The position numbers were made by a program, and so were the translations under genes. 64,000 nucleotides of DNA from IMG/VR virus record IMGVR_UViG_3300027797_000016, positions 41,060 through 105,059 of that record; one strand, given 5' to 3'. This document shows positions 6,826-45,288 of the stretch, piece by piece. The notes under the pieces were generated by a model. The model saw nothing but the letters and a program-made list of their open reading frames with translations. It had not been told where the DNA came from and did no database searches. The DNA comes from a virus. Position 1 is the stretch's first letter, and each line of letters starts with the position of its first letter.

Positions 6826-7040
6826 TCCAGTTCCTCAATCATATCATAATAACCATCATTTACTATATACCAGAAGTTCACAGCAACTGTTTTCTTATCC
6901 TTACTATAAGACCAATAAGTATTTCTCACAGAATAATAACCAGTATAAGTCTCTAACTTCTCGTAAGGAGTAAAAACCCAATGTTTCCAACTATTACAAG
7001 TCAGTTTCATACGATAAAAGTAGTAAGATAAACTATTCAT
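6822..7040 (-). CDS. Trp/Tyr-rich hypothetical protein, probable paralog of 7243..7488
   Basis: V.FW.I.N...Y.M motif. Confidence 0.75.
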   Translation of the reverse strand: MNSLSYYFYRMKLTCNSWKHWVFTPYEKLETYTGYYSVRNTYWSYSKDKKTVAVNFWYIVNDGYYDMIEELE

Positions 7041-7246
7041 AATGCCTCCAATTCATTAGCAAGGTCATAAAGCACCCGAGCATCAACTACCATATCTTCT
7101 ACACCTTCTTCTTCACAACACTGATAGTATTGAAACTCATTCACAATCTCACGAATAACAGCAGCAAGAGAAAGTTCTTCGTGATGTGTACTGTCCACCC
7201 ACTTATCTTCCCAAGCACGATAAATTCTTTTTGCCCTTTCAGTCAT
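7037..7246 (-). CDS. MTERA-family small protein
   Basis: Start revised; 3' half nearly identical to 8453..8680. Confidence 0.8.
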   Translation of the reverse strand: MTERAKRIYRAWEDKWVDSTHHEELSLAAVIREIVNEFQYYQCCEEEGVEDMVVDARVLYDLANELEAL

Positions 7247-7488
7247 AGTGCCTCCTCCAAATCTTTCGGGCAAATAAACGGAACATAAAATTTAGGATTT
7301 TCTGCCCAAGTATAAGAAAGTGATTTATTATTCATCTTATACCAAGAAGCATTCAAAATCCACCAAAACTGAACCTGTGGATATTCTGAATGAGAAGGAA
7401 AGTATATCCCCTCTACATTACTACAAAATTCTTTTGGTTGTCTTATCAAAGTTTTCCAGTAATCAAAAATGAGTTTAGTTAGTTTCAT
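7243..7488 (-). CDS. Hypothetical protein
   Basis: ORF track. Confidence 0.75.
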   Translation of the reverse strand: MKLTKLIFDYWKTLIRQPKEFCSNVEGIYFPSHSEYPQVQFWWILNASWYKMNNKSLSYTWAENPKFYVPFICPKDLEEAL

Positions 7489-7646: not shown

Positions 7647-7725
7647 CAGGTCTTTGTGTATGAATGTATTATACGACAAAGGGCACTCGGTTTCAAGTGC
7701 CCTTGTGACGGTTTCTCAAGTGTCC
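7647..7725 (-). promoter_or_regulatory. PeSL-like early promoter module, copy 3
   Basis: GGACACTTGAGAAACCGTCACAA-GGGCAC TTGAAA CCGA GTGCCC; TTGAAA-17-TATAAT. Confidence 0.9.
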
Positions 7726-7916
7726 TCCAGTTCATCAAGTTCATCGGCAATCTCAAGAATATCCTTTGATTTTACCATATAAGTTCCATCTTCCCAACTC
7801 TCATAATCACTTACAATCTCACGAAGAACATTAATAAGAGAAGATATCTCATTCCTTTTTGAGAACTTTGGTTCCCGTAAGAATGTTTCCAAGATTTTTT
7901 GTGCCCTTTTAGTCAT
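7716..7916 (-). CDS. MTERA-family small protein
   Basis: MTKRAQKI...LREIV...DILEIADEL. Confidence 0.8.
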   Translation of the reverse strand: MTKRAQKILETFLREPKFSKRNEISSLINVLREIVSDYESWEDGTYMVKSKDILEIADELDELEDT

Positions 7917-8119: not shown

Positions 8120-8265
8120 TTCAGTTCCTCCACCCGAACTTTTACAATACCATTAGACAAATCATCTGTATTATTATCTTCATCATAAACAGAGACTTCT
8201 ACATTATCATTAGCAAGATTGAGAACTTCTTTGATATATTCTGTGAGTTGTTTGTTTTTAGTCAT
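8116..8265 (-). CDS. Hypothetical protein, 49 aa (MTKNKQLTEY...)
   Basis: Translated by hand; coupled at both ends. Confidence 0.7.
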   Translation of the reverse strand: MTKNKQLTEYIKEVLNLANDNVEVSVYDEDNNTDDLSNGIVKVRVEELK

Positions 8266-8456
8266 TCCAGTTCCTCCACAGCATTAGCAATTTTGTTGAA
8301 GTCATCAGCAGTCAACCAAGCAAGTCCATAATCATCATACACAAAACTATCAGCAACAGCACGAATAGCAGCAGCAACTCCATCCTTTGGAAAGTTGTAA
8401 GTATCCTCTGCTTCGTATGCTCTCATAATCTTTTTTGCTCGTTCTTGATTAGTCAT
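8262..8456 (-). CDS. MTERA-family small protein
   Basis: ERAKKIM...AAAIRAVA. Confidence 0.8.
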   Translation of the reverse strand: MTNQERAKKIMRAYEAEDTYNFPKDGVAAAIRAVADSFVYDDYGLAWLTADDFNKIANAVEELE

Positions 8457-8680
8457 AATGCCTCCAATTCATTAGCAAGTTCATATAAAACTCTCGCATC
8501 AACTACCATATCTTCTACACCTTCCTCTTCACAACACTGGTAATACTGAAACTCATTCACAATCTCACGAATAGCAGCAGCAAGAGCATCATTATTAAGT
8601 TTTTGAATAATAAAATCTTGTCTTTTATCTGCGAAAGTGAGATAAAATGCTTCCATAATCCTTTGTGCTCGTTCAGTCAT
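8453..8680 (-). CDS. MTERA-family small protein
   Basis: ORF track. Confidence 0.8.
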   Translation of the reverse strand: MTERAQRIMEAFYLTFADKRQDFIIQKLNNDALAAAIREIVNEFQYYQCCEEEGVEDMVVDARVLYELANELEAL

Positions 8681-8886
8681 AATGCCTCCACATTATCAGC
8701 AAGTTCGTTGATATCTTCCATAATTTTATGGACTATTTCCCATTCAGCATACTGCATATAGGAAAGCACTACTTCAATAACAACCTCACGAATAGAAGAT
8801 GCTAATGCTTCTTTCATATCATCTGTTGGTTCTACAATCAATTCTGATTTGAATGTTTCCCAGATTTGGTATGCGGTGTTAGTCAT
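8677..8886 (-). CDS. MTERA-family small protein (start revised to MTNTAYQIW)
   Basis: First gene after promoter copy 4. Confidence 0.8.
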   Translation of the reverse strand: MTNTAYQIWETFKSELIVEPTDDMKEALASSIREVVIEVVLSYMQYAEWEIVHKIMEDINELADNVEAL

Positions 8887-8964
8887 CAGGTTTCTGTGTA
8901 TGAGAGTATTATAAGGCATCTGGTGCCCCTGTGGAGGGCTCTTGTGACGGTTCTTCAAGTGTCC
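8887..8964 (-). promoter_or_regulatory. PeSL-like early promoter module, copy 4
   Basis: GGACACTTGA, TATAAT; about 30 bp identical to copy 2. Confidence 0.8.
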
Positions 8965-17018: not shown

Positions 17019-17351
17019 TTAACTTAAGACAGATGCATTGACAATAATATTACCTTCTCTTTGTTTCTCTTTGACTGAACTTCCATTCACAGTAAAGACA
17101 TTATAATAATATCTACCACTATCAAGAGAAGCAGTTATAGTACTTGCCATTGAGATTCTAATTGTACTGGTACTTGTTGTAATTCCAGTCGTAAATGGAT
17201 AAGTTGTTGTGTCTCCTGCATACTTTGCAAGAAATGCAGATGCTGTGTATGATGAAATACCAACAAGAGATTGGTCTGGGTTTTTAAGAATAAAATCTCT
17301 TGTAAAATCTTCACCTTGTTGTATTGTGAAGTTCTCTGCGATGACTGACAT
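17019..17351 (-). CDS. Small virion structural protein (BppU-N-like beta sandwich)
   Basis: I.QG.DF...GRYYY.V pattern. Confidence 0.7.
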   Translation of the reverse strand: MSVIAENFTIQQGEDFTRDFILKNPDQSLVGISSYTASAFLAKYAGDTTTYPFTTGITTSTSTIRISMASTITASLDSGRYYYNVFTVNGSSVKEKQREGNIIVNASVLS

Positions 17352-17354
17352 TTT

Positions 17355-18683
17355 TTATCTTGTTAATGCTTGGAGTTGTTGATTGGGAAGTCTTTTTGGG
17401 TAGTATTTTAAGTATTTGCAATGACAATTAATTCTAGAATTGCTGGCTATTTCGGTGAGACCTATAATTAACATACTAACATTAATTTTATCTGGAACTA
17501 CACCTAAATTATCAGTACCCATCAAAATACCATTTCTGGCAGCAGCAAAATTATTCTCTTTAAATGCAAAGGAAACTTTTGATCCTGTTGCTGCCAACCC
17601 AAAATCAATTCCAACTTGATCGTTATATGCACCTCCAGGTCGAACTCCATTTCTTACAAGAAAATATCCCCCACCAAATCTGGTAGTTATAAAATATTGA
17701 ATTGTATAAAATGAATCTCCAACTGCAGTACCTGCAACACCAAATCCTGGATATCCTTCTGGTGCATTGACATTAAACGGGAAATCAGTATGTTCCAATA
17801 AAATAGTTCCTTCAGTTCCATTATACCAACTAAAATTATTTTGTGTTATTATTGCAGTATCTTTATCTCGGGTTCTTGTTGATCCTATTGTGGGTATGTA
17901 GGAGGTTGGGAATGCTCCTGCTTCCAGTTGAGCACCCCAGATGTAGATACCTGATGTTCCGTCTCCAGTATATTGTGTTGTAGAACCATTATATATTATA
18001 ATGGATGGGTTATTGGTTGTATTTACTGTACCCTTTGTTGCAGTTAAAATGCATCTATACCATCCGTTTGGATATGCTATTGTTGTTGCTGATATTGCAG
18101 TATAATCTGCACTTGTAAGACCAGTAGATACAATTGCACCATTAGATAAATTAAAAATTACTTGTGCAGCGGCATTTAAAAAATTAGAAAGAGATAATGA
18201 AACATAACCTCTTTCTGCTGCTTTTGCAAATACACTCAAAGTTACAGTTTCATTACTTGCAGTTCTTCCAACATAAGCAAAATGTTCTACATTAGATGCA
18301 GTATTTTCTACTAATTTCTCTGCACTATTAGTTCCATCAGGTGCAGTCGTTGCTGATGTATTTGTTGTAATACCTATATTTGATTTAGTCCAAGCAGCAT
18401 TATCAAACTGCTCACTATAAGTCAACAAATTAGTCCTACTCTCCTCCACCAACAAACCCAAACTCTCACCAGTCACCGGGTTGTGGTCAAAACGTGCCTC
18501 ATTGACTCCGGATAACTTAATCAACCCATCAGCACCCGTATAAGACCCACCAGATGCTCTTGTGAAGGTGATTCTTGAGTCTAGTGCCTTCACCCGTGCA
18601 AAGTTTAGATCCAGAGTTGGTCTAACCTCTGGATAGTCTAAATCAGTTGTATCAGCAGAAAGCAGAAAGGTATCAATACTCAT
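17355..18683 (-). CDS. Spike/fibre receptor-binding-like protein A
   Basis: ITFTRAS..RFDH.P.TGE.LGLLVEESRTN; PTSYIPT; lectin/LamG-like C-terminus. Confidence 0.8.
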   Translation of the reverse strand: MSIDTFLLSADTTDLDYPEVRPTLDLNFARVKALDSRITFTRASGGSYTGADGLIKLSGVNEARFDHNPVTGESLGLLVEESRTNLLTYSEQFDNAAWTKSNIGITTNTSATTAPDGTNSAEKLVENTASNVEHFAYVGRTASNETVTLSVFAKAAERGYVSLSLSNFLNAAAQVIFNLSNGAIVSTGLTSADYTAISATTIAYPNGWYRCILTATKGTVNTTNNPSIIIYNGSTTQYTGDGTSGIYIWGAQLEAGAFPTSYIPTIGSTRTRDKDTAIITQNNFSWYNGTEGTILLEHTDFPFNVNAPEGYPGFGVAGTAVGDSFYTIQYFITTRFGGGYFLVRNGVRPGGAYNDQVGIDFGLAATGSKVSFAFKENNFAAARNGILMGTDNLGVVPDKINVSMLIIGLTEIASNSRINCHCKYLKYYPKRLPNQQLQALTR

Positions 18684-19503: not shown

Positions 19504-20835
19504 TTATGATGTGAGGGTTTGGAGTTGGGAGTTAGAAAGACGGACTGGGTAGTATGAGAGTCTGGAGATGGTTCCATTTAGGTATCTATTAGTATCACTT
19601 TCACGACCAACAACTAATATATTAAATCCACTTTGACTTATATTACCTGTAGCATCCAAAGAAATATTTCCTCCATTTAAACATTGTGAGAAGTAATTTA
19701 CATCCTCATAATTAAATATCGATTTACCATTTCCTGATGTATAAGTATTTGATATAAATTCAACTGCATATGTAAAATCTGTTAAAAATGCAAAACTTCG
19801 CATGGTTGATATATACACTCCGGATTCTTGCCCTCCTATTCTTGAGGACATTCTACGACTAATATTAGAACTATCAAATATACTAACTAAATACATATCT
19901 AAAATACTACTTGGGTGAATTTTGTTATTAAAATTCACTAAGAAACTCCCCTCATCCTGTCTATACCAACTACTAAAGTTCTTACCAGTTATTGATGCAT
20001 TATCTGCTGCTCGGGTTCTTGTTGATCCTACTGTGGGTATGTAGGAGGTTGGGAAGGATGCTTGTTCTATTTGGGCGCCCCAGACGTAGATGCCACTGGT
20101 GCCGTCTCCTGTGTAAACAGTATTTATACTCGTTGTATTTAAAGTTACATTAAAATTAACTGCAGTTCCACTACCTGCGGTTGAAGGAATTCCCGTTAAA
20201 ATACATCTATACCACCCGTTTGGATATTGTTGAATATTTGTTGTAATTACCGATCCATTTCCTTCTGCTAAAGTACTAACTACACTTCCAGTATCACTAT
20301 CAAACCAAGCAGATGCTCTATTTCCTGCTGCACCTGCTGCAATTATTTGAAATCTTATTCTATATCTTTCTGCAGATTTTATGAAAATAGAAGCAGTATA
20401 TGTTGCAGATGTTGATCCGGATACATCTAAATTTATAAAATGATCTGTGCTTGGACTTGTATCTTCATATAGTTTTTCGCAATCATTAGTTCCATTTGGA
20501 GATAAAGTTGCTGCAACATTTGCTGATACAGAAGTCCGGACTTTACTCCAAGCAGCATTATCAAACTGCTCACTATAAGTCAACAAATTAGTCCTACTCT
20601 CCTCCACCAACAAACCCAAACTCTCACCAGTCACCGGGTTGTGGTCAAAACGTGCTTCATTTACTCCAGATAACTTAATCAACCCATCAGCACCCACATA
20701 AGACCCACCACTAGATCTTGTAAAGGTAATACGGGGGTCTAGTGTTTTACTATTTGCAAAATCAAGGTCAAGTGTAGGTAGCACAATAGGGTAATCAAGT
20801 TCTGCACTGGTATTAAAAACTTGTTTGACTGACAT
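19504..20835 (-). CDS. Spike/fibre receptor-binding-like protein B
   Basis: Paralog of A and C. Confidence 0.8.
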   Translation of the reverse strand: MSVKQVFNTSAELDYPIVLPTLDLDFANSKTLDPRITFTRSSGGSYVGADGLIKLSGVNEARFDHNPVTGESLGLLVEESRTNLLTYSEQFDNAAWSKVRTSVSANVAATLSPNGTNDCEKLYEDTSPSTDHFINLDVSGSTSATYTASIFIKSAERYRIRFQIIAAGAAGNRASAWFDSDTGSVVSTLAEGNGSVITTNIQQYPNGWYRCILTGIPSTAGSGTAVNFNVTLNTTSINTVYTGDGTSGIYVWGAQIEQASFPTSYIPTVGSTRTRAADNASITGKNFSSWYRQDEGSFLVNFNNKIHPSSILDMYLVSIFDSSNISRRMSSRIGGQESGVYISTMRSFAFLTDFTYAVEFISNTYTSGNGKSIFNYEDVNYFSQCLNGGNISLDATGNISQSGFNILVVGRESDTNRYLNGTISRLSYYPVRLSNSQLQTLTS

Positions 20836-22483: not shown

Positions 22484-23752
22484 TTATTTAGTTAATGCTT
22501 GGAGTTGAGCGTTGGTAAGTCTTTTTTGGTAGTATGAGAGTCTGGAGATGGTGTACTGTCCAATTGTAGTTCTTTGATCAGTATTTTTTCCAAATTCTAA
22601 TTGATTAAATCCTGGAGAAGTTGCGTATATATTACCACTTCCTGTTCCTATTGTCCCATTTAATGCAGAAATAATTGGAGATGAATTTATATTGTAAGAT
22701 TGAATTACTTTTTGAAAATTATTATTTGTTAAAGAAAATTGTGGATATAAATTTGTTCCTCCAACATTATATTGAGTATGAATACTGTTTGATATAGTTA
22801 GTAATCTAAAGTAATTATTAATCGTTCCAAATGTGGTTGCTGGGTAATTATTAATACTCCATATATTATTAGTAATATTTAATTCAGTTTTAAATTGTGC
22901 AAAAAATGTCCCCTCATCCTGCCGATACCACTCTCTAAAGTTCTTACCAGTTATTGATGCATTATCTGCTGCTCGGGTTCTTGTTGATCCTACTGTGGGT
23001 ATGTAGGAGGTTGCGAATTCTCCGGATTCGACTTGTATTCCCCAAAAATAATTGTCTGCAGACCCGCCCTCAAGGTCAACACGAGCATCAGGTCCAAAAA
23101 CTCCACCATTATAATCAGGTCTTGCAACTAAAGTACAACTAAATCTATACCAATCATTTTGATATCTTTCAGTTCTTATATTTTGAAATTGTCCGCTATT
23201 AGGATTATTTCCATCAAATCTAAAATTATATGTTCCCAACGACCCGCCACCAACTGACTGTTGAAATATTTCTATATTACTAAAGTCTCTATTCAGTCCA
23301 CCAAATCTTCTTTTAGAAAAAAAACTGAGTGCTAGTGTAGAAAGTCCATTAGCATTAAAAACACTTGACGTTAATTCACTTACAGTAATATAATAAACAG
23401 TTCCTAAAACTCCATAAGGATTTAATATTGTATCAGTATTTACTTGTGTATTTAAATTCCCACTCCAACCTGACACAAAGTCTTCACTATAAGTAATCAA
23501 ATTAGTCCTACTCTCCTCCACCAGTAACCCCAAAGATTCACCAGTATAAGGATCGTGGTCGAATCGTGCCTCATTGACTCCGGCAAATTTAATATAACCA
23601 TCAGCACCCACATAAGACCCACCAGATGCTCTAGTGAAGGTTATTCTTGGGTCTAGTGTTTTACTATTTGCAAAATCTAGGTCAAGTGTAGGTCTTACAC
23701 TTGGGAAATTATTAACTGATGACTTATTGGAACCAACTCTAAAAACAGACAT
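22484..23752 (-). CDS. Spike/fibre receptor-binding-like protein C
   Basis: Paralog of A and B. Confidence 0.8.
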   Translation of the reverse strand: MSVFRVGSNKSSVNNFPSVRPTLDLDFANSKTLDPRITFTRASGGSYVGADGYIKFAGVNEARFDHDPYTGESLGLLVEESRTNLITYSEDFVSGWSGNLNTQVNTDTILNPYGVLGTVYYITVSELTSSVFNANGLSTLALSFFSKRRFGGLNRDFSNIEIFQQSVGGGSLGTYNFRFDGNNPNSGQFQNIRTERYQNDWYRFSCTLVARPDYNGGVFGPDARVDLEGGSADNYFWGIQVESGEFATSYIPTVGSTRTRAADNASITGKNFREWYRQDEGTFFAQFKTELNITNNIWSINNYPATTFGTINNYFRLLTISNSIHTQYNVGGTNLYPQFSLTNNNFQKVIQSYNINSSPIISALNGTIGTGSGNIYATSPGFNQLEFGKNTDQRTTIGQYTISRLSYYQKRLTNAQLQALTK

Positions 23753-25563
23753 TACTTAATATTCTCCTTCAGGTTATTTATCTCTTTCTGTTGCTTCTTC
23801 ACGACCTCAATCAGTAATCCAATCAAACCATTATAATTCACAGTCTTACTATCAGTACCATTTACAAGTTCTGGAAGAACTTTCTCCACTTCTTGAGCAA
23901 TCACACCCATAGAACTTCTACCACTTTCTTTCCAATCAAAGGATACTCCATTAATCTGTAGAACCTTATCTATTGGATTTATAATTGGTTTAATGTTCTC
24001 TTTGAGGTTAATGTCCGATGCAGAGTTAAAATCAGTAGATGTGGTAACACCAGAGACTAATACATCTCCAATGACGTGAAGTTTACTTGTTGGATTTGTG
24101 GTTCCAATACCAAGATTACCAGAGACATAAGCACCACCAGTGACCTGAAGTCTTTGTAATGATGTTCCTGTTGATGTTGCAGCACCAATAAAGACGGGTC
24201 CATTTACAAAGGTAGAAATTCCTGTAATTTGTAAGTCAGTAAATGTATTGGGTGCATTTGAGATTGCACTCTCAATTGTTGCAGTCGTAACACTATCAAG
24301 AGAAGCAATATTTTGTAACTGTCTTCCTGAACTAATGACTTGAGTAGATGCAATATTTAAAGAACCAACTGTACCAATACCACTATAAGAAACATTGGTT
24401 CCTGATAGGTTAGTAATAGTTCCATTAGTACTGTTAAAGGTTGTAATAGTCCCTGCAGTACCAGTTAAATTGGTAATAGTTCCATTAGTACTGTTAAAGG
24501 TTGTAATAGTCCCTGCAGTACCAGTTAGATTGGTAATAGTTCCTGTGGTACTGTTAAGAGTTGTAATCGTACCAATACCAGTAATCCTTCCATTTCTTGC
24601 TGTAAACTCATCAAATACTAAATCATCAGCAACATATAAGTCTCCACCAACATATAAATCTCCACCAGTAGTTGTAATACCACCAGAACTTGCAAGTGTA
24701 CTAATACCAGCAACAGTAATACTACCAAATAAAGTAGTTGGTCCACTTATGTTTGATGGACCAGGAAAGACTGTAAGTGCATCAACAACAGCAGTAGTTA
24801 CAACATCAATACCTTGTAAGAAAGTAGAAACTCCAGATACTCTTAATGAACCAGTACTTGTAAGACCAGATACTACTAGTGAATTTGTTGTTGTAACTCC
24901 AGAAACTACTAATGAACCAGTTGTTGTAACTCCAGTATTATTGATTGTAGTACTTCTTACATTAGTGATTGTAGAAATACCAGTATAGTTTAGATTAGTT
25001 CCAGAGATATTAGTTACAGAACCATTTGTATAAGTTAATGTAGTTCCACTGATTGTTGTTACAGTACTAACACCTAAAGAGTTTATATTTCCTGTTAGAT
25101 TACCAACAAAACCACCAGAAGAAGTAGTAACTCCAGAAACTAATACATTTCCACGAACATCAAGAGTTACTAAAGGATTTGTGGTTCCAATACCAACAAG
25201 ACCAGTATTTGTAGTAGAAACAATCGTTCCACCAGTTCCTACATTTAAAATTCTAACAGTTGCAATACCAGTTATATTTCCGTTTCTTGCTGTAAACTCA
25301 TCAAATACTAAATCATCAGCAACATATAAGTCTCCACCAACATATAAATCACTTACAGTAGTTGTGACCCCAGTAAATGTAGATACACCAGTTACAATTA
25401 ATGTTTGTAGTTTTGTATTTCCAACTACCTCAAACTTTGTACTTGGATTTGCAGTACCAATACCAATATTTGGTAGTGCTGTGGTTGCAATACCAACATT
25501 TTTATTGGCGTCATTAACTCTAACAAATGAAGCAAATTGTGAAAGTTCTCTATTATTAGCCAT
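23752..25563 (-). CDS. Tail fibre with C-terminal intramolecular chaperone (peptidase S74)
   Basis: GIGTTNP repeats; SDINLKENI...GVIAQEVEKVLPELV...VNY. Confidence 0.85.
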   Translation of the reverse strand: MANNRELSQFASFVRVNDANKNVGIATTALPNIGIGTANPSTKFEVVGNTKLQTLIVTGVSTFTGVTTTVSDLYVGGDLYVADDLVFDEFTARNGNITGIATVRILNVGTGGTIVSTTNTGLVGIGTTNPLVTLDVRGNVLVSGVTTSSGGFVGNLTGNINSLGVSTVTTISGTTLTYTNGSVTNISGTNLNYTGISTITNVRSTTINNTGVTTTGSLVVSGVTTTNSLVVSGLTSTGSLRVSGVSTFLQGIDVVTTAVVDALTVFPGPSNISGPTTLFGSITVAGISTLASSGGITTTGGDLYVGGDLYVADDLVFDEFTARNGRITGIGTITTLNSTTGTITNLTGTAGTITTFNSTNGTITNLTGTAGTITTFNSTNGTITNLSGTNVSYSGIGTVGSLNIASTQVISSGRQLQNIASLDSVTTATIESAISNAPNTFTDLQITGISTFVNGPVFIGAATSTGTSLQRLQVTGGAYVSGNLGIGTTNPTSKLHVIGDVLVSGVTTSTDFNSASDINLKENIKPIINPIDKVLQINGVSFDWKESGRSSMGVIAQEVEKVLPELVNGTDSKTVNYNGLIGLLIEVVKKQQKEINNLKENIK

Positions 25564-25602: not shown

Positions 25603-28600
25603 TCAATTGGTAATTGAGTTGGTAGCAATCTTAATCGTGTTATTTCTATAAGTTGGAGTAAATACTAATCTTGCATTAGAACCTGAAATATCAGCATTAA
25701 AACTACCAAGAATTTCATTATTTGCAATGGTTGCAAACTCAATATAATCACAAGACGTAACAGCACTTCCAACAGATTGTAAAATCATTACGTCACTGAA
25801 TTGATAGTTATTAACTACCACAGATGATATAAAGGTAAATCCAGTACCCACATTTGCACCATCAAAATTAGTTGCGGTTAATCTACTTGTTGCAGTATAA
25901 CCAGAACCCGGAGATACAATTGATACATTAGTTATTGATCCTCCAATACTTGCAACTGGTGCATTGGATGCAAATAAATCATCACCAACATCAGTTCCAG
26001 TCAATGTTCCAATTCCAACACCAGTAGAAATTCCAAGACTATTAGAAGTTCTTGGTATTGCATAATAAATTTGAGTACTTCCAGTTGTAGTCACACCAGG
26101 ACCAGGAAGAATACCTGGGTAACCTAATGATGCAGTTGCTCTTGCAGTTGTTCCAATACCAATATTTGGTGTACTAAATGTAACTACAGCAGATGCAGCA
26201 GTTGTATATCCAATACCTAGGTTTACAAGAGAAATTGTACTCACTCCAAATCCAACAGTTGCAGAAGTACCAACTGGATTAAATGTTGCAATTGGACTTG
26301 CTGCTAAATCAGTTGCAGTATAACCACTTCCAGGATTAGTAACATATACATTTGTGACTAAAATAGTAGAGACTGCTGCACCAACACCTGACCCTGGTGC
26401 TAAAGATGGACTATTAAAAGAAATTGCTGGGATACTTATACTATAACCAATTCCTGGATTTGAAATTCTTATTTGAGTAATTCCAACTCCAACACTACCA
26501 ATTGCAGTGCTTGCAACTCCAACAGGACTTGAGACAGTGACTGTAGGTATTGAGGAATAACCAAACCCTGGATTTGTAATTGTAACATTAGTAAATGTAA
26601 CTCCAAGACCAGCAATAACAGCACCACCAGAACCAGTAAGTCCATTAACTGCAGTCACTGCAATTCCTGGTGCAATATTGTATCCAGAACCAAATCCAAC
26701 TACATTTACGCTACCAATACCCATTGCTACCGTAACACTAGCACCACTTCCCACAGTTGCAAGAATTTGAGGAGTTGGGACCAGTGATGCACCAAATCCA
26801 GCATTATTAACTGTTACATCAGTAACTCCCATTTTAGTGATGGTAACACCAGCACCTGTTCCACCACCACCAGTAATTGTAACAGTAGGAATATTAATGT
26901 ACCCAGAACCACTATTTGTAATTGTAAAATCTTCAAGAGCTCCACCGGCACCAATTCCACCGAATGCTCCTGTTGCACTGTTAATACCAATACTCGGCAT
27001 ACTAAAGATAACATTGGGTGAACCACCAAATCCACTTCCAAAATTGATAATAATATCAGTAGAGGTTACTCCAAGTCCTACAGTTGCTGCAAATCCAGTA
27101 ACTGTAGGTGTGAGTGCTAATGTTGGTGAAGAAGTATATCCAGTACCAGCATTTACTACAGTAACTGTACTAACCCCTAGTGTAGAAAGAATTGTTGCAG
27201 TATTAATTCCAACATTGGGAGTACTAACTGTAAGTAAAGGAGGTCTTGTATATCCAATTCCTGTTGTAATATTAAATTGTGATGATATACCTAGACTGTT
27301 TACTATCGCAGTAGCAGTATTAATACCAACTTGAGGTGCAGAGAATGTAAGAATTGGGAAATTGCCAGAAGTATATCCAGTTCCAGTAATTGGAAATTCT
27401 ATATTAGTTACAAATACATTTGATACTGATAAGGATGCTCCTACTAATGCAAATCCACTTACAGAAATAGTAGGAATTGGATTATATGCTGAACCACTAC
27501 TTGTAATCGTAATTGTAGAAACTCCAAATCCAACAATACCTGATGCGCTACTACCAACACCAACTGGACTATTAAATGCTACTGTTGGAACTGTTGTGTG
27601 AATTCCTGGAGTATTAATAGTAACGTCGGTTACTATTACAGTACTGACTATTGCAGTTGCAGTGCTTCCAATACCAGATACACCAGAAATCGCAGGACTA
27701 TTAGTAGGATTTGCAATAGTAATGGTTGGAATTGCAGTATAACCAGAACCTTGATTTGTAATAGTTAATGCAGTAACTTTTGAGTTTTGTGCTGGAGTTG
27801 CTGGAATTGCACGATTAAATAAAACAGGAGTATTGGTTGATATTCCAGAGACATTTGATGAAGTATTAAAGGACCCATTTGAAATGGAGTCAATATCAAC
27901 TCTTAATTCTGGAGCAATATTTATATTTGCTCTTGCATCAAGACCAGTTCCAGAACTTGTACTTAACAGAACATTAGTATAACTTCCAGATGCATATCTT
28001 GTTCCACCCTGAAGACTTCCAACTGACAGTGAACTTGAGGATGATGCACCACCAACAAGTTGTCCCGTGCAAGTTACCTGAACATTATACTTTGCACTTC
28101 TAAAAGCAGTAGTATTAAAACTATTCAGTACTTGATTTGCGGTAGTTGCTGTAGTTGTAACAATTCCAGAAGTAAGGTTTACAACAGGACTTGTTCCAAT
28201 AATTACTGTTGTTCCTACAGAAACACTTTCCAATACATTAACAGTTCCCCGAACATCTAAAGTTTGTAATGGATTTGTGGTTCCAATACCAATACGATTT
28301 GTAGCAGCATTTACAGATAAAGTATTACCATTGACCGTTAAATTGCCGCTAACAGTTGCAACTCCAGTAATCAGTGCATTACCAACCACATCCAAAGTTG
28401 CTGTTGGATTTGTAGTTCCAATACCAAGACGATTTTCTCCTGGATTATAAACCAATCCACTATTATCTACTTTTAGTATTGCATTATTTTCAGTCTGTTC
28501 TGTAAATGTTGGATAAAAAAGACTGGATGCTTGTGTAATCGCAACTCCAACAGAGTTTGCAGAACCAACTGTAACTGCACCAGGAGCACCCCAAACAGGA

Positions 28601-29862
28601 GAACCTACTCCACCAGAAAGTAATACCTGACCTGATGTTCCACTATCATTATTTACATATAACTTACCAGAAAGTGCAATATCTCCACGAGTATCTAATG
28701 AGTATTGTGGATTTGTGGTTCCAATACCAACTCTTGCAGTATCAGTAACCACTGTTGCAAATGTTCCAATACCAACTTGCAGTTTTTGTAATGGATTTGT
28801 GGTTCCAATGCCTACTCTGCGAGTATTGGAGTTAACAAATAAGGTATTTACATCTACCTGAAGATTTGATGTGATTGTTGCTGATGTACCTACAAAAAGA
28901 TTTGTAGTAGTCGTAAAACCACTGTTAATTGTATTTGCAGTCAGTACTCCAATAAAACCAGTAGTTGCCGTTATAAAACCAATAGTTGCAGCAGTACCTA
29001 CAAAAAGATTTGTAGTTGTTGTAAAACCACTGTTAATTCTATTTGCACCCAGTACTCCAATAAATCCTGTGGTTGCACTAATAACACCAACAGTAGATAC
29101 TCCACTTACTTTACTATCACCGACTACATCCAAAGTTGATGTTGGATTTGTGGTTCCAATACCAACAGAACCTGAAACTACTTTAAAGAATGTTGTAGTG
29201 TCTGAAATCTCAAAATTACCTACTTTCAGACTTTCAGTAAATGTTCCTGTGGTTGCAGTTAATATTCCAATTGTTGCAATACCACTAATCTTTACATTTC
29301 CTAATACATCCAGTTTAGATGTAGGAAGAGTACTACCAATTCCAACAAAATCATTGGAAGCACTGTATACAAAATCTTGCGATCCTTGTAAAAATCCACT
29401 ACTATTCTTATAAGGAACTGCTCCAATATCTCCAGTTACAGAAACATCAGTAACTGTAATTTGAACGTCTACAGAACTAGAACCAGCACCTACCCAAGAT
29501 GCTGGATTATTTACGGTTACTCCACTTCCAACAAAGTTTAAATCAGTAATCTGATTTACACCACCAACGATTACTCCTGCGTTTCTTATAGTAACGCTAC
29601 CAGGAGTTACAACCCCACCAGCAATCAAACTGGTCTGTTTCGTCCAGTATCTTTCACCGGATCCTGCAGATGCAACTACATATAAATCAGCAATGTCTCC
29701 AGTATAAGGATTTACTCCAACAGAAGATACGCCAATTAGTGGGTCTCCTAAATCAGGTTCTGCCTGATCTAGACCCAAAAATTCATAACGATCTGATGTG
29801 ATACCACTTTGATCTCTTCTTTTTACTCTATTACTTAAAAAGTTTGGATTTGGATTAACCAT
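25603..29862 (-). CDS. Large tail-fibre-like protein, 1419 aa
   Basis: GIGTTNP and ITN.GSGYT repeats. Confidence 0.85.
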   Translation of the reverse strand: MVNPNPNFLSNRVKRRDQSGITSDRYEFLGLDQAEPDLGDPLIGVSSVGVNPYTGDIADLYVVASAGSGERYWTKQTSLIAGGVVTPGSVTIRNAGVIVGGVNQITDLNFVGSGVTVNNPASWVGAGSSSVDVQITVTDVSVTGDIGAVPYKNSSGFLQGSQDFVYSASNDFVGIGSTLPTSKLDVLGNVKISGIATIGILTATTGTFTESLKVGNFEISDTTTFFKVVSGSVGIGTTNPTSTLDVVGDSKVSGVSTVGVISATTGFIGVLGANRINSGFTTTTNLFVGTAATIGFITATTGFIGVLTANTINSGFTTTTNLFVGTSATITSNLQVDVNTLFVNSNTRRVGIGTTNPLQKLQVGIGTFATVVTDTARVGIGTTNPQYSLDTRGDIALSGKLYVNNDSGTSGQVLLSGGVGSPVWGAPGAVTVGSANSVGVAITQASSLFYPTFTEQTENNAILKVDNSGLVYNPGENRLGIGTTNPTATLDVVGNALITGVATVSGNLTVNGNTLSVNAATNRIGIGTTNPLQTLDVRGTVNVLESVSVGTTVIIGTSPVVNLTSGIVTTTATTANQVLNSFNTTAFRSAKYNVQVTCTGQLVGGASSSSSLSVGSLQGGTRYASGSYTNVLLSTSSGTGLDARANINIAPELRVDIDSISNGSFNTSSNVSGISTNTPVLFNRAIPATPAQNSKVTALTITNQGSGYTAIPTITIANPTNSPAISGVSGIGSTATAIVSTVIVTDVTINTPGIHTTVPTVAFNSPVGVGSSASGIVGFGVSTITITSSGSAYNPIPTISVSGFALVGASLSVSNVFVTNIEFPITGTGYTSGNFPILTFSAPQVGINTATAIVNSLGISSQFNITTGIGYTRPPLLTVSTPNVGINTATILSTLGVSTVTVVNAGTGYTSSPTLALTPTVTGFAATVGLGVTSTDIIINFGSGFGGSPNVIFSMPSIGINSATGAFGGIGAGGALEDFTITNSGSGYINIPTVTITGGGGTGAGVTITKMGVTDVTVNNAGFGASLVPTPQILATVGSGASVTVAMGIGSVNVVGFGSGYNIAPGIAVTAVNGLTGSGGAVIAGLGVTFTNVTITNPGFGYSSIPTVTVSSPVGVASTAIGSVGVGITQIRISNPGIGYSISIPAISFNSPSLAPGSGVGAAVSTILVTNVYVTNPGSGYTATDLAASPIATFNPVGTSATVGFGVSTISLVNLGIGYTTAASAVVTFSTPNIGIGTTARATASLGYPGILPGPGVTTTGSTQIYYAIPRTSNSLGISTGVGIGTLTGTDVGDDLFASNAPVASIGGSITNVSIVSPGSGYTATSRLTATNFDGANVGTGFTFISSVVVNNYQFSDVMILQSVGSAVTSCDYIEFATIANNEILGSFNADISGSNARLVFTPTYRNNTIKIATNSITN

Positions 29863-30260: not shown

Positions 30261-33200
30261 TTATTCGGCTAGAGCGAGAATGAATGGGGTCATAGTTGTA
30301 AAGAGTGCTTTTGTAAAGTCTCTTCCTGAAATTTGACCCGTTGCTTGATTAATAATAACACCATCACCAATTTTAAAGTTTCCTGCTTGGTCAGTTGAAG
30401 TGTAGACAACTATACCACCATTTTCCTGAATTACTTCATTTTCAGGAATAACTACACCCCCAAGAGCTGGCTTTGCTCTATTTATATCATTTCCAGAACC
30501 CACCCATTCAAATGAGTGAGATGAAGTAATCTGTAAACTTACTCTAGAGAAGTACACAGTAGTTCCAACACTTACTGTATTATTCAGGTTTTGTAATAAA
30601 GAAATTGTGGAAATTCCAGCAGAAGGTAAGGTAGCACTATCAACTTTATAATAAATTGGTTGCATCCTAGATACAGATGCTGTTGCTGTATTAACACCTA
30701 CATTTGGCGATGCAATAGTGATTGTAGGTGGATTTCTATATTGTGTTCCTGAATTTAAAATGTTTATTGCTGTTACTTGCCCACCCACAACAACTGAAGA
30801 TGCTTGAGCAGTAATGCCATTTACTCCCTCTGGAGAACTTATAGTAACTCTTGGAGCAGAAGTGTAACCAGACCCACCATCAGTAACTTCAATAACATCT
30901 ACAAAGGATAATAACTCTCCAAAGTAACAAACTTGTCCGTCATAAGGTCTATAAGTACCTACTCCAGAAACAACAACTGCGTTTGTTTTTTCAAGAGCCT
31001 CTGTATTAATAACACCAGTTGAACGATAAATTGACTTACTCTCTGCATCACCAACTCCATCTGCAACAAGTCCCAAACGACCAAATGATGAGTTGGAGTT
31101 AGTGATATCACATTGTCCACCAGAACCAGTAAAGATTGCAATATCATCGCATATTGTAAAGATGGAAACTAACTGTGAGTATGCACCATTTGTAATAGAA
31201 ACTCCAATGCCACCTTGATTGTATTGGGTATAACTATCCACACTCATCGTACCAGTTACACCAATATCATCTTGATCGCCAGGTTCTGCATCAAATCCAT
31301 CCACTTTCATTCCAATTGAACTTGGAATAAAGTTGGTACAGTTCCTCACATAAGGACCTTGAGTAATATTTCCAACACCTCTGGAATATGCTGGTTTAAC
31401 TATTCCACCAGAAACATAAGTATGAGGAAGAGTAGAGGTGCCAACATTTACGACAAATGTTGTTCCTGCAATTCCAATTACTTCAATAACAGGAAAATTG
31501 TAACCCAAATTTCCACTTGGATAGGTAACTATTCCTGGTCCAGAAGGACAAGTAAATCCTAATCCAATTAGAGTAACCACATCTCCAACTTTAACATATG
31601 CTCCAGTAGCAGTAATTGTAGTAATACCCGAAGTATTATCATATTTTGCTGCAGTAATTCCAATAGAACGATTTACAACAAAACCACCATTTACATAGGT
31701 ATGGGGAATAGTGGATATTCCTGTGTTAATTATAAATGATCCATCATTATTTAATTTATTAACATAAAACTCATATCCATATGCCCCAGAAGGGAATGTT
31801 TGAGTTGAGATCCCACCACCAGAATCGCAAGAAAAATTTAAATCACGAACTTCAATTACATCACCTGGTCTTACAGAAAGACCCGGAACAGTTAATGTTG
31901 TACTTCCAGTTTCATTATCATATGATGCAGTTGATACACCTATAATTGATGTAAAACCAATTCCAAGATTTCCTGGATAGGTGGTCTTAATTCCAGCAGG
32001 ACCAAGAGCAGATAATCCATTATTAATTATAGTTGTAATAATTCCAACGCAAGAATAAATTGCAGATACTACATTTGAACATCCATTAATTGCATTATTA
32101 AATCCAGTATCTGGATCATCTTGCATTGACAAATCTTTTACTTGAGTAAACTCATTTTGGAAATTTGCATATTTTTGTACTGTTCCGCCAGAAACATAAG
32201 TATGAGGAAGAGTTGACTGACCAACAACAACCTCAAAGGTATTCACTCCAACTATGCTCTTAACATTAAAAATGTAACCCAAATTTCCACTTGGATATGT
32301 AACTATTCCTGGTCCAGAAGGACAAGTAAATCCTAATCCAACAACTTTAACTGCATCATTAATTGATAATCCGTGATTGATTGCAGTAATTGCGGTAACT
32401 CCAGTTGTATTATTGTAAACTGCATTGGTAACTGCAGTTTGAATACCTACAGGATTAGAACCCCACGTTACATTATTAATAATTGCTCTTGCAATACCAG
32501 CAGAATACTTTAATGCATCAATTGTTTCTGTTTTTATACCAACAATATTTTGTAATACACCTTCACTTGTATAATATGATTTTCCTGCTCCAACACATTT
32601 AGTATTTCCACCTCTGGTAATATCAAAACAAACTGACTTAAACATATCCTTAATATCATTCTTACGACCTGATATAGAACTAATACCAAGAGTAAGTGGT
32701 GGGTTTCTATATTCGGTACTTGTTAAGTATCCTACTGCCTCACTTGCAATATAATCAAGATTTAATCGAAGCATTCTTGCTCCGTCAAAAAATCTATCAG
32801 TAGATACACCAAGCAATGGTTGTAAGGTAACAACTGCTGATCCATTTGTCATATCTGGACCAATAAAACTTAAGTCAGTTATGTGACAACCATTATTAAC
32901 ATAAAATAAATCACGACTTGGATATTTGGGAGTAATTATACAGTTACGAAGTTCTGTTCCTTCTACAGCAACCCGTGTTGCAAGAACTATTGGGTTTTCT
33001 TCCACATATGCACCCGGAAATACTTTAACCGTATCTCCAGGAAATGCTATCATTGCAGCAGCTTTGATAGTTCTCTTTGTATAATTTTCTGCAAGACCAC
33101 TATTATCATCATTACCAGTTTGTGAGACATATATTGTCTTTCCAACTGGACGATATGACTTAACTTCTACTGCCCCCTTTCCAATTGTTGGAGTTAAATC

Positions 33201-34880
33201 AATACCAATTCCAGCAGTAATTTGAGTTACAATTCCAGAAAGATTTGCACCATCACCATAATAATTAAGTGCAGTTACATCACCAACAACTTCCAATTCT
33301 GTTGAGGGTAAATCTGTTCCAATACCTAAAGAATTTGTTGATGGATTAAAAGTAAATCCACTTGAATTTACAGATAAAGTTGTAATTCCTGATGTAACTG
33401 GAGAAAATACTCCATAAAATACGTCATTATCATTCGTTTCAGTAACTGTAATGTCTACAAAATCGGAAGCACTTGCCCAGACTGATGGTAAAGTAGATCC
33501 TCTAGAAACAAGGACCTGATTGTTAAATCCAGGAGATAATTGTGTTGGGATGAAAAAAGATAGATTAGTAGTTGCACTTCCAACTAATACCCGATGAAAA
33601 GTACTAATCCCAATTGAATTAACTCCAATTGAAGTAATTGTAGTTCCTGGTACTATATCATTTTCTCCTGCAGTTTCTTCAACAAGATAACCAATTAATA
33701 AATTTGATGTATTTACTCCAATTACACTTCTATTTGAACCACTTAAAGTACCAATTCCAGAAGAAGAAAATGTTTGTGGAGTAGTTGCATATAATTGGTT
33801 ACTAAATGCAATATCACCAACTACATCAAGATTTCTTTGTGGTAAATTAGTACCAATTCCAAGTTTTGCTGTAGATGGAATAAAGGATAATTTAGAAGTA
33901 TTTACATTTATAGAGGTACTTCCAATTCCAGTAGCGAATGTTGGAAATAATACATTAGATGTAGAATTTGATGTAATTATTACACTTGTTGAAACGCCAG
34001 ATGTAGATGAAAATCCACTTATATTAATATCATATGTTCCACTTAAAGTAATATCAACAGTAACAATTCCAACTGTTCCTGCACCAGGTCCATTAATTAC
34101 AAACCCATTTCCAAAATCTAGAATTGTTCCTAGACCAACATTTATTCCATCATCACGAACTTCAATTGTAGCACCACCGATTAGAATAAGATCATTTGTA
34201 TCAACAAGTGAAATCATTTCCACTACATCACCAGAAAATGCTGAAGTTAATAATCTTACAGTTGTGCCTATTCCAACATATTCTGTTGTTGGAATTAACT
34301 TAACACCATTTAAATAAACATCAAGTTGATCTTGTTGGTATATGAAATAATAATCAGTTTGACCTTCAGTTGATATAAATGTCTGTTGATTTCTGTATAC
34401 ACCAAAACTTTCCCATTCAACACCAGTTCCAGTGGATTTTAAATATTGTCCTGATGAACCAGAAGCATTATTATTATCACGAAGAGTTCCATCAATACCT
34501 AAAGTATTAAAGGTACTAATTCCAACACTATTAATATTTCCATCAATAAATACATCACCTTTTACATATAATGCAGTTTGTCCTGCAGATACAGTACGAA
34601 CATCTAATAAGTATGCAGGATTTGCAGTGCCAACACCAACCGAACCACCAACTCCAAGAACTGTAAGAACTGTTCCTCCAAGTCCTACATTGAGTTCATC
34701 TGCAAAAGTACCAATACCCGTAAGATAAAAATTAGTTGCTCCAATGCCACCATTAACGTCAAGAGTGTATTTTGGTGCTGTTGTTCCTATACCAACCTTT
34801 CTTGTATCTGCATCAGCAAGAATGAGGTTTGTAGATGCCTCAAAACCGTGACGTACTACGAAGTTTTTTGAGATGGACAT
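30261..34880 (-). CDS. Large virion structural/fibre protein, 1539 aa
   Basis: YVS..G.D.N.G...TIK.A beta-helix entry; TSTDQAGNF.IG. Confidence 0.85.
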   Translation of the reverse strand: MSISKNFVVRHGFEASTNLILADADTRKVGIGTTAPKYTLDVNGGIGATNFYLTGIGTFADELNVGLGGTVLTVLGVGGSVGVGTANPAYLLDVRTVSAGQTALYVKGDVFIDGNINSVGISTFNTLGIDGTLRDNNNASGSSGQYLKSTGTGVEWESFGVYRNQQTFISTEGQTDYYFIYQQDQLDVYLNGVKLIPTTEYVGIGTTVRLLTSAFSGDVVEMISLVDTNDLILIGGATIEVRDDGINVGLGTILDFGNGFVINGPGAGTVGIVTVDITLSGTYDINISGFSSTSGVSTSVIITSNSTSNVLFPTFATGIGSTSINVNTSKLSFIPSTAKLGIGTNLPQRNLDVVGDIAFSNQLYATTPQTFSSSGIGTLSGSNRSVIGVNTSNLLIGYLVEETAGENDIVPGTTITSIGVNSIGISTFHRVLVGSATTNLSFFIPTQLSPGFNNQVLVSRGSTLPSVWASASDFVDITVTETNDNDVFYGVFSPVTSGITTLSVNSSGFTFNPSTNSLGIGTDLPSTELEVVGDVTALNYYGDGANLSGIVTQITAGIGIDLTPTIGKGAVEVKSYRPVGKTIYVSQTGNDDNSGLAENYTKRTIKAAAMIAFPGDTVKVFPGAYVEENPIVLATRVAVEGTELRNCIITPKYPSRDLFYVNNGCHITDLSFIGPDMTNGSAVVTLQPLLGVSTDRFFDGARMLRLNLDYIASEAVGYLTSTEYRNPPLTLGISSISGRKNDIKDMFKSVCFDITRGGNTKCVGAGKSYYTSEGVLQNIVGIKTETIDALKYSAGIARAIINNVTWGSNPVGIQTAVTNAVYNNTTGVTAITAINHGLSINDAVKVVGLGFTCPSGPGIVTYPSGNLGYIFNVKSIVGVNTFEVVVGQSTLPHTYVSGGTVQKYANFQNEFTQVKDLSMQDDPDTGFNNAINGCSNVVSAIYSCVGIITTIINNGLSALGPAGIKTTYPGNLGIGFTSIIGVSTASYDNETGSTTLTVPGLSVRPGDVIEVRDLNFSCDSGGGISTQTFPSGAYGYEFYVNKLNNDGSFIINTGISTIPHTYVNGGFVVNRSIGITAAKYDNTSGITTITATGAYVKVGDVVTLIGLGFTCPSGPGIVTYPSGNLGYNFPVIEVIGIAGTTFVVNVGTSTLPHTYVSGGIVKPAYSRGVGNITQGPYVRNCTNFIPSSIGMKVDGFDAEPGDQDDIGVTGTMSVDSYTQYNQGGIGVSITNGAYSQLVSIFTICDDIAIFTGSGGQCDITNSNSSFGRLGLVADGVGDAESKSIYRSTGVINTEALEKTNAVVVSGVGTYRPYDGQVCYFGELLSFVDVIEVTDGGSGYTSAPRVTISSPEGVNGITAQASSVVVGGQVTAINILNSGTQYRNPPTITIASPNVGVNTATASVSRMQPIYYKVDSATLPSAGISTISLLQNLNNTVSVGTTVYFSRVSLQITSSHSFEWVGSGNDINRAKPALGGVVIPENEVIQENGGIVVYTSTDQAGNFKIGDGVIINQATGQISGRDFTKALFTTMTPFILALAE

Positions 34881-45216: not shown

Positions 45217-45288
45217 AGCCCCCGATCTGATTTGAACAGACGGCCGACGGTTTACAAAACCGTTGCTCTACCACTGAGCTACAAGGGC
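45217..45288 (-). tRNA. trnT: tRNA-Thr(UGU), no encoded CCA
   Basis: GCCCTTGTAGCTCAGTGGTAGAGCA-ACGGT-TTTGTAA-ACCGT...GTTCAAATC...GGGGGCT cloverleaf. Confidence 0.95.

Follow-up and report, generated by a model that had tools for sequence, protein, structure and literature searches.

Why should the third codon positions of a phage fibre gene switch from G/T to A/C across each of its variable segments? The question is raised by gene B, a tail-fibre/spike-like gene of 443 codons (19504..20835, minus strand) in the 64,000-nucleotide stretch of DNA analysed here, referred to as the window (positions 41,060 to 105,059 of the IMG/VR virus record IMGVR_UViG_3300027797_000016). The window (G+C 36%) is the last 64 kb of a 105-kb record that has the appearance of a T4-like cyanomyovirus, with nearly all genes carried on the minus strand and tail, baseplate and fibre genes present. 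An initial annotation had pointed to runs of G/T-ending codons before, and of A/C-ending codons after, two variable segments of gene B and had proposed that they were a footprint of directional recombination. Our own reading, held tentatively and at somewhat less than an even chance, is that these blocks are short, position-specific islands of strand composition of the type known as GRINS, lying in the conserved junction arms of a tail-fibre/spike family that swaps cassettes.

Third-position skew in gene B and its paralogues

Gene B has a constant-variable-constant-variable-constant layout. Its third codon positions were compared with a null in which the amino acids were fixed and codon usage was taken from the other genes of the 105-kb genome, giving the following segments in coding order.

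20674..20715 (minus): block b0, codons 41-54; 14/14 G/T-ending, 8.1 expected, P = 3e-4
20545..20637 (minus): block b1, left arm of variable segment 1, codons 67-97; 31/31 G/T-ending, 16.9 expected, P = 7e-10
20116..20544 (minus): variable segment 1 (VS1), codons 98-240; 71/143 G/T-ending, 81.5 expected
20005..20115 (minus): block b2, right arm of VS1, codons 241-277; 35/37 A/C-ending, 17.0 expected, P = 7e-12
19936..20004 (minus): block b2b, left arm of variable segment 2, codons 278-300; 16/23 G/T-ending, 14.0 expected, P = 0.23
19588..19935 (minus): variable segment 2 (VS2), codons 301-416; 67/116 G/T-ending, 71.9 expected
19507..19587 (minus): block b3, right arm of VS2 reaching the stop codon, codons 417-443; 23/27 A/C-ending, 11.9 expected, P = 3e-6

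The sign change from b1 to b2 spans 143 codons, with every codon G/T-ending on one side and all but two A/C-ending on the other, and the skew runs are 81-111 nt long. Third positions of b1 comprised 15 G and 16 T with zero A and zero C. Over all codon positions, b1 had a GC skew of +0.62 and a TA skew of +0.25 (37% G, 34% T), while the two skews were -0.23 and -0.41 in b2 and -0.68 and -0.14 in b3. The runs originally described on both sides of VS1 and after VS2 (20/23 A/C-ending at codons 421-443, within b3) were reproduced. The count given before VS2 was also recovered (13/15 G/T-ending at codons 283-297); the b2b flank that contains it was, however, not significant in gene B alone. No third-position skew was found against the amino-acid-conditioned null in VS1 or VS2 of gene B. 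Amino-acid composition, which the initial annotation had already discounted, was ruled out as the cause by these amino-acid-conditioned P values together with the four-fold-site contrasts given below.

The blocks of gene B and of its neighbouring paralogues A and C ranked at the top of the whole genome, both by a synonymous within-gene shuffle and by an amino-acid-conditioned z scan. With 24-codon windows they held the first five ranks of the genome and six of the first nine (|z| 4.3-5.5). The keto (G/T) index of gene B was 0.77, the highest of 88 genes, with every other gene at or below 0.45. Third-position keto/amino (G/T versus A/C) choice was over-dispersed genome-wide (empirical standard deviation of z 1.28), and third-position G (G3) clustered with G3 and third-position C (C3) with C3 (r 0.05-0.09 at lags 1-5), with a genome-wide neighbour correlation between G3 and third-position T (T3) of about 0. 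No comparable runs were found in the other fibre genes or in the small genes between the paralogues.

The paralogues and their runs are as follows.

17355..18683 (minus): paralogue A; G/T run at 18387-18479 (31 codons, nucleotide-identical to B), A/C runs at 17868-17924 and 17358-17420
22484..23752 (minus): paralogue C; A/C run at 22967-23041 (25 codons, largely nucleotide-identical to B)
23483-23554 and 22493-22564 (minus): further stretches of paralogue C, a G/T-rich window and a C-terminal A/C run, respectively

That A and C share blocks with B, as had been claimed, was borne out by these runs and by the identical tracts. A and B are nucleotide-identical through b1, B and C through much of b2, and A and C have a common 3' end. 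Two repeat families connect the genes, one of 238 nt (identity 87% for A-B, 75% for A-C) and one of 155 nt (82% for B-C, 70% for A-B). Codon-identical tracts cover about 36 codons between A and B and about 25 codons between B and C, with exact tracts of about 80-110 nt. Because the three genes share these tracts, they do not count as independent evidence.

By sequence homology, gene B belongs with the RcGTA head-spike-fibre-like phage fibre proteins. Over residues 18-313 it matches Rcc01080, the head spike fibre of RcGTA (the Rhodobacter gene transfer agent; PDB 6TB9, E 5e-40), with weaker matches to the phage baseplate/fibre chains 9B45, 8ENV and 9OCC, and the gene corresponds to PHROG 5939 'tail protein' (E 5e-97). 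The best named relatives are the 'tail protein' genes of the Synechococcus phages S-WAM2 and S-CAM4, at 35% amino-acid identity. A 110-amino-acid gene just downstream of A (17019-17351, minus) has a PHROG match to 'L-shaped tail fiber protein assembly' (E 2e-15), and its product may be a fibre chaperone.

Recurrence of the bias across the fibre family

A total of 121 homologous open reading frames were collected from 79 IMG/VR loci, and 101 were kept at no more than 80% amino-acid identity. The main family test used the blocks as drawn in the initial annotation, four-fold sites only, and 92 homologues other than A, B and C. The keto contrast of b1 against b2+b3 was above zero in 85/92 homologues (P = 4e-18), as was the G-minus-C (GC-skew) contrast in 79/92. 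When each contig contributed a single gene, the contrast was positive in 58/67. The earlier reading had been staked on homologues carrying the flip, and they do. Individual amino acids told the same story: in the homologue family the Glu codons GAG:GAA were used in a ratio of 198:93 in b1 compared to 47:184 in b2+b3 (P = 2e-28), the Ile codons ATT:ATC in a ratio of 67:11 compared to 91:115, and codon choice for Tyr, Phe and Gln was opposite by block, following the same rule as Glu.

Each cassette has extra G3 on its left and extra C3 on its right, and this is the core of the family signal; keto/amino choice as such is not its main component. The gain in G3 or C3 came at the cost of both A and T. 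At the four-fold sites of homologues with a middle third-position G+C content (GC3), G3 was 0.42 in the G/T blocks compared to 0.15 in the variable segments, and C3 was 0.49 in the A/C blocks compared to 0.20; b2b, too, was raised in G3 in these homologues (0.32 compared to 0.13). T3 showed no enrichment in the G/T blocks of the family and dropped in middle-GC3 homologues, and in low-GC3 homologues b1 gained G3 and lost third-position A (A3). Since the genome is AT-rich, T is the ending of the leftover codons to the left of a cassette and A of those to its right, which produces the all-G/T and all-A/C runs seen in gene B.

In a family profile of 7-codon bins with a baseline of -0.05, a G3 island of about 14 codons lay at codons 71-84 (ESLGLLxEESRTN; +0.30 to +0.36), C3 islands at codons 260-280 (-0.14 to -0.46) and 414-441 (-0.18 to -0.30), and a small G3 islet at codons 295-301 (+0.18). 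The effect at b0 was only slight across the family. The islands coincide with the most conserved motifs of the family. GC skew at codon positions 1-2 predicted four-fold G3-C3 in the conserved blocks (r 0.30) but not in the variable segments (r -0.04), and the synonymous first positions of Leu and Arg were more often CTN/CGN in the A/C blocks, an effect partly tied to C3 choice.

Two general explanations were set aside at this point. A generic neighbour-context effect was rejected, as skew at positions 1-2 had no predictive power in the variable segments of the same genes (genome-wide r 0.12-0.28). Heterogeneity in GC3, or import from GC-rich donors, was ruled out because G3 and C3 rise in separate blocks and never jointly.

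Among distant homologues of the same fold, those from Pseudomonas, Klebsiella, E. coli, Rhodobacter and Rhizobium phages had the b2 C3 bias absent or inverted, whereas those from a marine Nonlabens phage and a Salinibacter phage had it, indicating that the pattern is tied to the gene pool and not to the fold. Codon identity for the same residue between contigs was 0.39-0.47 in the blocks compared to 0.42 in the variable segments, and in the C3 island of low-GC3 genes it was even lower (0.38 compared to 0.50). The silent sites have thus turned over and yet the bias has stayed, which points to a persistent force acting in each lineage. With synonymous sites between contigs otherwise saturated, the bias is upheld independently per lineage and is not inherited sequence.

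Cassette exchange and gene conversion in the arms

Between paralogues of one contig, codon identity was 0.57-0.71 in the blocks compared to 0.47 outside. A rise in codon identity confined to the blocks and to genes of the same contig is a mark of gene conversion, and the arms are homogenised between tandem paralogues. Exchange between phages was equally visible. Sixteen IMG/VR gene pairs qualified as mosaics, with identity of 90% or more in one part of the gene and of 60% or less elsewhere in it. Up to about codon 267 the gene of locus L017 is the same as S-CAM4 gp071, and between about codon 270 and the stop it is the same as L024; VS1 alone, from about codon 85 to about codon 260, is common to L074 and L057. 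Natural recombinants of the family were found in L017, L002, L024, L074, L057, L051, L019 and L041 (IMG/VR contigs, S-CAM4), and VS1 and VS2 have been swapped independently between phages.

Breakpoint calling in short windows was confounded by the short conserved islands and was therefore replaced by a long-tract criterion, which required identity of at least 95% over 40 or more codons on one side of the breakpoint and of no more than 62% on the other. This gave 63 robust breakpoints, 40 from same to different and 23 from different to same. Codons 80-99 held 31/40 of the same-to-different breakpoints and codons 250-279 held 14/23 of the different-to-same breakpoints, the remainder including codons 40-54, 295-299 and 310-314. 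The cassette edges of natural recombinants abut the G3 and C3 islands.

Repeats of other kinds were also noted in structural genes of the window. The fibre genes at 23752-25563, 25603-29862 and 30261-34880 (minus) carry, between 24070 and 34988, 8-11 near-identical copies of a motif (TTGGTATTGGAACCACAAATCC, read on the coding strand) that is about 22 nt long and encodes GIGTTNP. A gene for a 912-amino-acid structural protein (49484-52222, minus) contains a perfect PPGT tetrapeptide repeat of about 20 units at 50441-50695, with a strong compositional skew of its own.

Candidate explanations for the islands

GRINS are duplicated, gene-converting stretches of DNA with intense, positively correlated GC and TA skews that are strongest at third positions (Nivina et al., 2021; PMC8256042). 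Their skews change sign abruptly on one strand with a peptide shift to Gly/Val/Trp or Pro/Thr/His/Gln, their skew correlation is 0.70 compared to 0.09, they are defined by a length of >500 bp, and phage genes were among the hits; the authors gave the mechanism as unknown (PMC8256042). The fibre genes resemble them in several respects. The DNA is duplicated inside one gene cluster, at more than the 80% identity that marks GRINS (A-B 87%, B-C 82%); mean absolute GC and TA skews exceeded 0.15 in b1 and b2, with the TA skew of b3 borderline against that value; and GC-TA skew correlation, in 150-nt windows with a step of 30, was 0.74, 0.61 and 0.54 in A, B and C compared to 0.11 genome-wide. The skew has its maximum at third positions and changes sign abruptly on one strand within 1 kb, and it accompanies Gly/Val/Trp-rich versus Pro/Thr/His/Gln-rich peptide. 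Gene conversion is evident in the patchwork identity of A, B and C and in a block codon identity raised only within contigs, and copies from one genome resemble each other while those from different genomes have diverged. The host, however, is an AT-rich lytic phage and not the polyketide synthase (PKS) clusters of Streptomyces, and the sign in the fibre genes is position-specific, conserved over about 90 diverged homologues and ordered around two swappable cassettes, whereas GRINS are described as recent lineage-specific elements without cassette order. In their small size, the position-by-position conservation of sign in a deep family and the two-cassette order, the fibre blocks go beyond the GRINS description.

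A different parallel is offered by the T-even adhesins, whose hypervariable segments are reportedly flanked by glycine-rich motifs in gp38 and by His boxes in gp37. There, too, short conserved blocks bracket hypervariable receptor-binding segments and are thought to be crossover points for host-range cassettes; the protein family is unrelated, and we know of no strand-skew or synonymous-site signature reported for the adhesin motifs. In the literature on phage fibres, no relevant prior description of such skew was found.

If the blocks are GRINS-type islands, a recombination-linked process acting on the nucleic acid of the arms would maintain them, either through selection on pairing strands or through bias in conversion or repair. 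Foremost among specific models is one in which cassette borders would favour strands that are G/T-rich and 3'-ended. Each of the four main blocks has its G-rich (G/T-rich) strand oriented with the 3' end toward the cassette. RecA and Rad51 are said to pair preferentially with GT-rich sequences, a preference linked to the Chi hotspot, and the likeness to the fibre genes lies in G/T-rich 3'-ended single strands oriented to a break. One octamer, GTTGGTGG, lies within the Leu-Leu-Val-Glu codons in b1 of gene B (20604-20611, minus) and occurs also in A. It shares 7/8 bases with E. coli Chi, and we take it to match the GNTGGTGG form reported for Haemophilus. The octamer was present only in homologues with Val at codon 77 and is probably a by-product of G/T-rich coding. 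No Chi-type oligomer was shared by the G-rich strands of b1, b2 and b3, the best being TTGGG in 24-28% of homologues, and no 6-mer or 7-mer on these strands exceeded 12% of homologues. A more far-reaching version, which we consider unlikely, is that phages have a natural system for exchanging cassettes of receptor-binding modules and that the islands serve it as functional 'docking' sequences; the cassette-facing 3' strand would then be kept G/T-rich and complement-free for efficient invasion of, or annealing with, diverged partners.

A number of observations weigh against the interpretation as GRINS-type islands. The fibre repeats, at 155-238 nt, fall short of the >500 bp by which GRINS are defined and, as the mechanism of GRINS is itself unknown, the label explains little. 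The link between skew and recombination is by position only. The initial annotation had proposed to test whether sign switches coincide with recombination breakpoints, and cassette edges do adjoin the islands, but these edges are forced to conserved/variable borders by construction, so that true crossovers inside the identical arms are unmappable. Skew strength did not differ with the presence of an adjacent paralogue (P = 0.33). The earlier rule that the strand with its 3' end toward the cassette is G/T-rich stood for b1, b2, b2b and b3 and failed in two places. Directly upstream of the G3 island lies a small family C3 patch (codons 64-70, -0.15) with no cassette between, and in the MTERA-type small paralogues, a second mosaic family of this genome, which carry runs of 8-18 mostly T-ending G/T codons at their conserved motif, the G/T run (14-18 codons) lies downstream of the variable N-terminal half, the opposite geometry to that of the fibre genes. 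Similar runs elsewhere in the genome had also been named as a concern: the A/B/C blocks are the most extreme and none equals them, but weaker runs do occur in other genes (|z| up to 4.6). Finally, causes at the level of the nucleic acid and of codon decoding predict nearly the same third-position pattern and are not cleanly separable. The MTERA-type genes lie on the minus strand at 8453-8680 and 7037-7273, and also at 8262-8456, 7716-7916 and 8677-8958, and share a conserved AAxIREIVNEF-like motif.

The decoding alternative holds that the blocks are conserved slow and fast stretches that time the co-translational folding of nested jelly-roll modules. The usual GNN/UNN anticodons would decode A/C-ending codons through Watson-Crick pairing, and G/T-ending ones would be decoded through wobble, so the keto and amino classes are exactly the wobble and Watson-Crick classes; moreover, the islands sit on the most conserved motifs, and their sign is position-specific and kept while codon identity turns over, as is reportedly the case for conserved rare-codon clusters. 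We nevertheless give this account a low probability. There was no sign of translational selection among the phage genes, in all of which two-fold C/(C+T) was 0.10-0.31 with structural genes not higher, and the distant same-fold homologues lack or invert the b2 C3 bias. Leu and Arg codons are skewed at their synonymous first positions as well (an effect partly tied to C3 choice), and GC and TA skews over all positions are correlated, as in GRINS. The window carries a single phage tRNA-Thr (anticodon UGU; 45217-45288, minus). Nucleic-acid structure is less probable still as an explanation, whether by pairing of G/U-rich with A/C-rich blocks, such as b1 with the 3'-terminal b3 to loop out the cassettes, or by avoidance of self-structure, the complement of the amino-acid-imposed base being excluded from each block. 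Pairing of b1 with b3 was predicted in both minimum free energy (MFE) and centroid folds of the B mRNA, one register gave 13/15 pairs in B and 14/15 in S-WAM2 gp056, and over 78 homologues the b1:b3 duplex was 2 kcal/mol better in cis than in trans (P = 0.005, uncorrected for 8 tests). Avoidance would fit the way in which the sign of third-position skew follows that of positions 1-2 in the blocks, like a 'three-letter' structure-free design. However, no 7-pair helix exceeded 0.78 pairing across the family and the top candidates were promiscuous G.T-rich words, the registered b1:b3 pairs had no advantage in cis (8.98 compared to 9.11 in trans), b1:b2 complementarity equalled that of composition-matched shuffles (z +0.4), and local folds were of ordinary strength (z -1.6, +0.2). 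A search across the homologues for a conserved RNA element, with kept helices and compensatory changes, found none, the b1:b3 complementarity being at consensus level without covariation. In B and A, the DHNP codons (ACCACAACCC) and LGLLV codons (GGGTTTGTTGGT) at 20590-20650 (minus, B coordinates) can form a 10-bp bulged hairpin, which is not kept in the family. It is scarcely credible that the pattern is due to chance or to frozen ancestral sequence that recent exchange has spread. This view could draw on the identity of A with B through b1 and of B with C through b2, which deprives the copies of independence, but it is opposed by the amino-acid-conditioned P values of 7e-10 and 7e-12 in B and by a between-contig synonymous divergence in the blocks equal to that of the variable segments, and the recurrence of the contrast in 85/92 other homologues, together with the turnover of silent sites, effectively refutes it.

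The remaining alternative is a mutational footprint of double-strand breaks in the cassette, in which 3' tails left repeatedly single-stranded after 5' resection would lose C and A and drift to G/T, by deamination or by error-prone gap filling on the tail strand. In human meiotic double-strand break hotspots, the single-stranded side accumulates C>N and A>N mutations, including A>G and C>G (Hinch et al., Science 2023; PMC7615360). The likeness is a mirror-image asymmetry about a break-prone centre in which the strand left single loses C and A, with the same polarity as in the fibre genes (PMC7615360), and this polarity is right for b1, b2, b2b and b3. The loss of A3 and gain of G3 in b1 of low-GC3 homologues agree with such a process, and the conserved arms alone would last long enough to collect mutations. 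The hotspot footprint, however, extends over about 2 kb with off-centre peaks and rests on a measured mutation spectrum, whereas the fibre islands are 40-110 nt long with abrupt ends and no gradient in the cassettes, and a break in the cassette is here only hypothetical. The left and right thirds of VS1 and VS2 were alike, and the G3 island of about 14 codons ends within a few codons and has an opposite-sign C3 patch upstream (64-70), with no smooth decay. The MTERA paralogues have the opposite geometry, and recombination-linked mutation would have to beat the AT pressure of the genome at these sites alone. The G/T blocks show no excess of T3, which drops at middle GC3, so that C>T deamination of single-stranded DNA, which the initial annotation had put forward, is not the driver. 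We regard the footprint as improbable overall, and the original reading of directional recombination as partly supported, in that the junction link and the four-block polarity hold and simple deamination does not. GC-biased mismatch repair of a heteroduplex of fixed polarity was discarded by reasoning only, as it yields no strand asymmetry of G versus C.

Phage host range evolves largely via swaps of receptor-binding modules. In this family, silent sites at the cassette junctions are held strand-specific across a deep set of homologues and against the AT pressure of the genome. The unexplained GRINS phenomenon is thereby linked to a small and testable phage system, made up of three genes whose arms measure about 100 nt. 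A skew that promotes exchange would help to predict where fibres recombine and could guide modular fibre engineering; one that is a mutational scar would let the polarity of recombination be read from viral genomes. Should the islands act as docking sequences, host-range modules would swap far more often than homology alone permits, and the design shared with GRINS would mean that directional recombination follows a general polarity code in both bacteria and phages.

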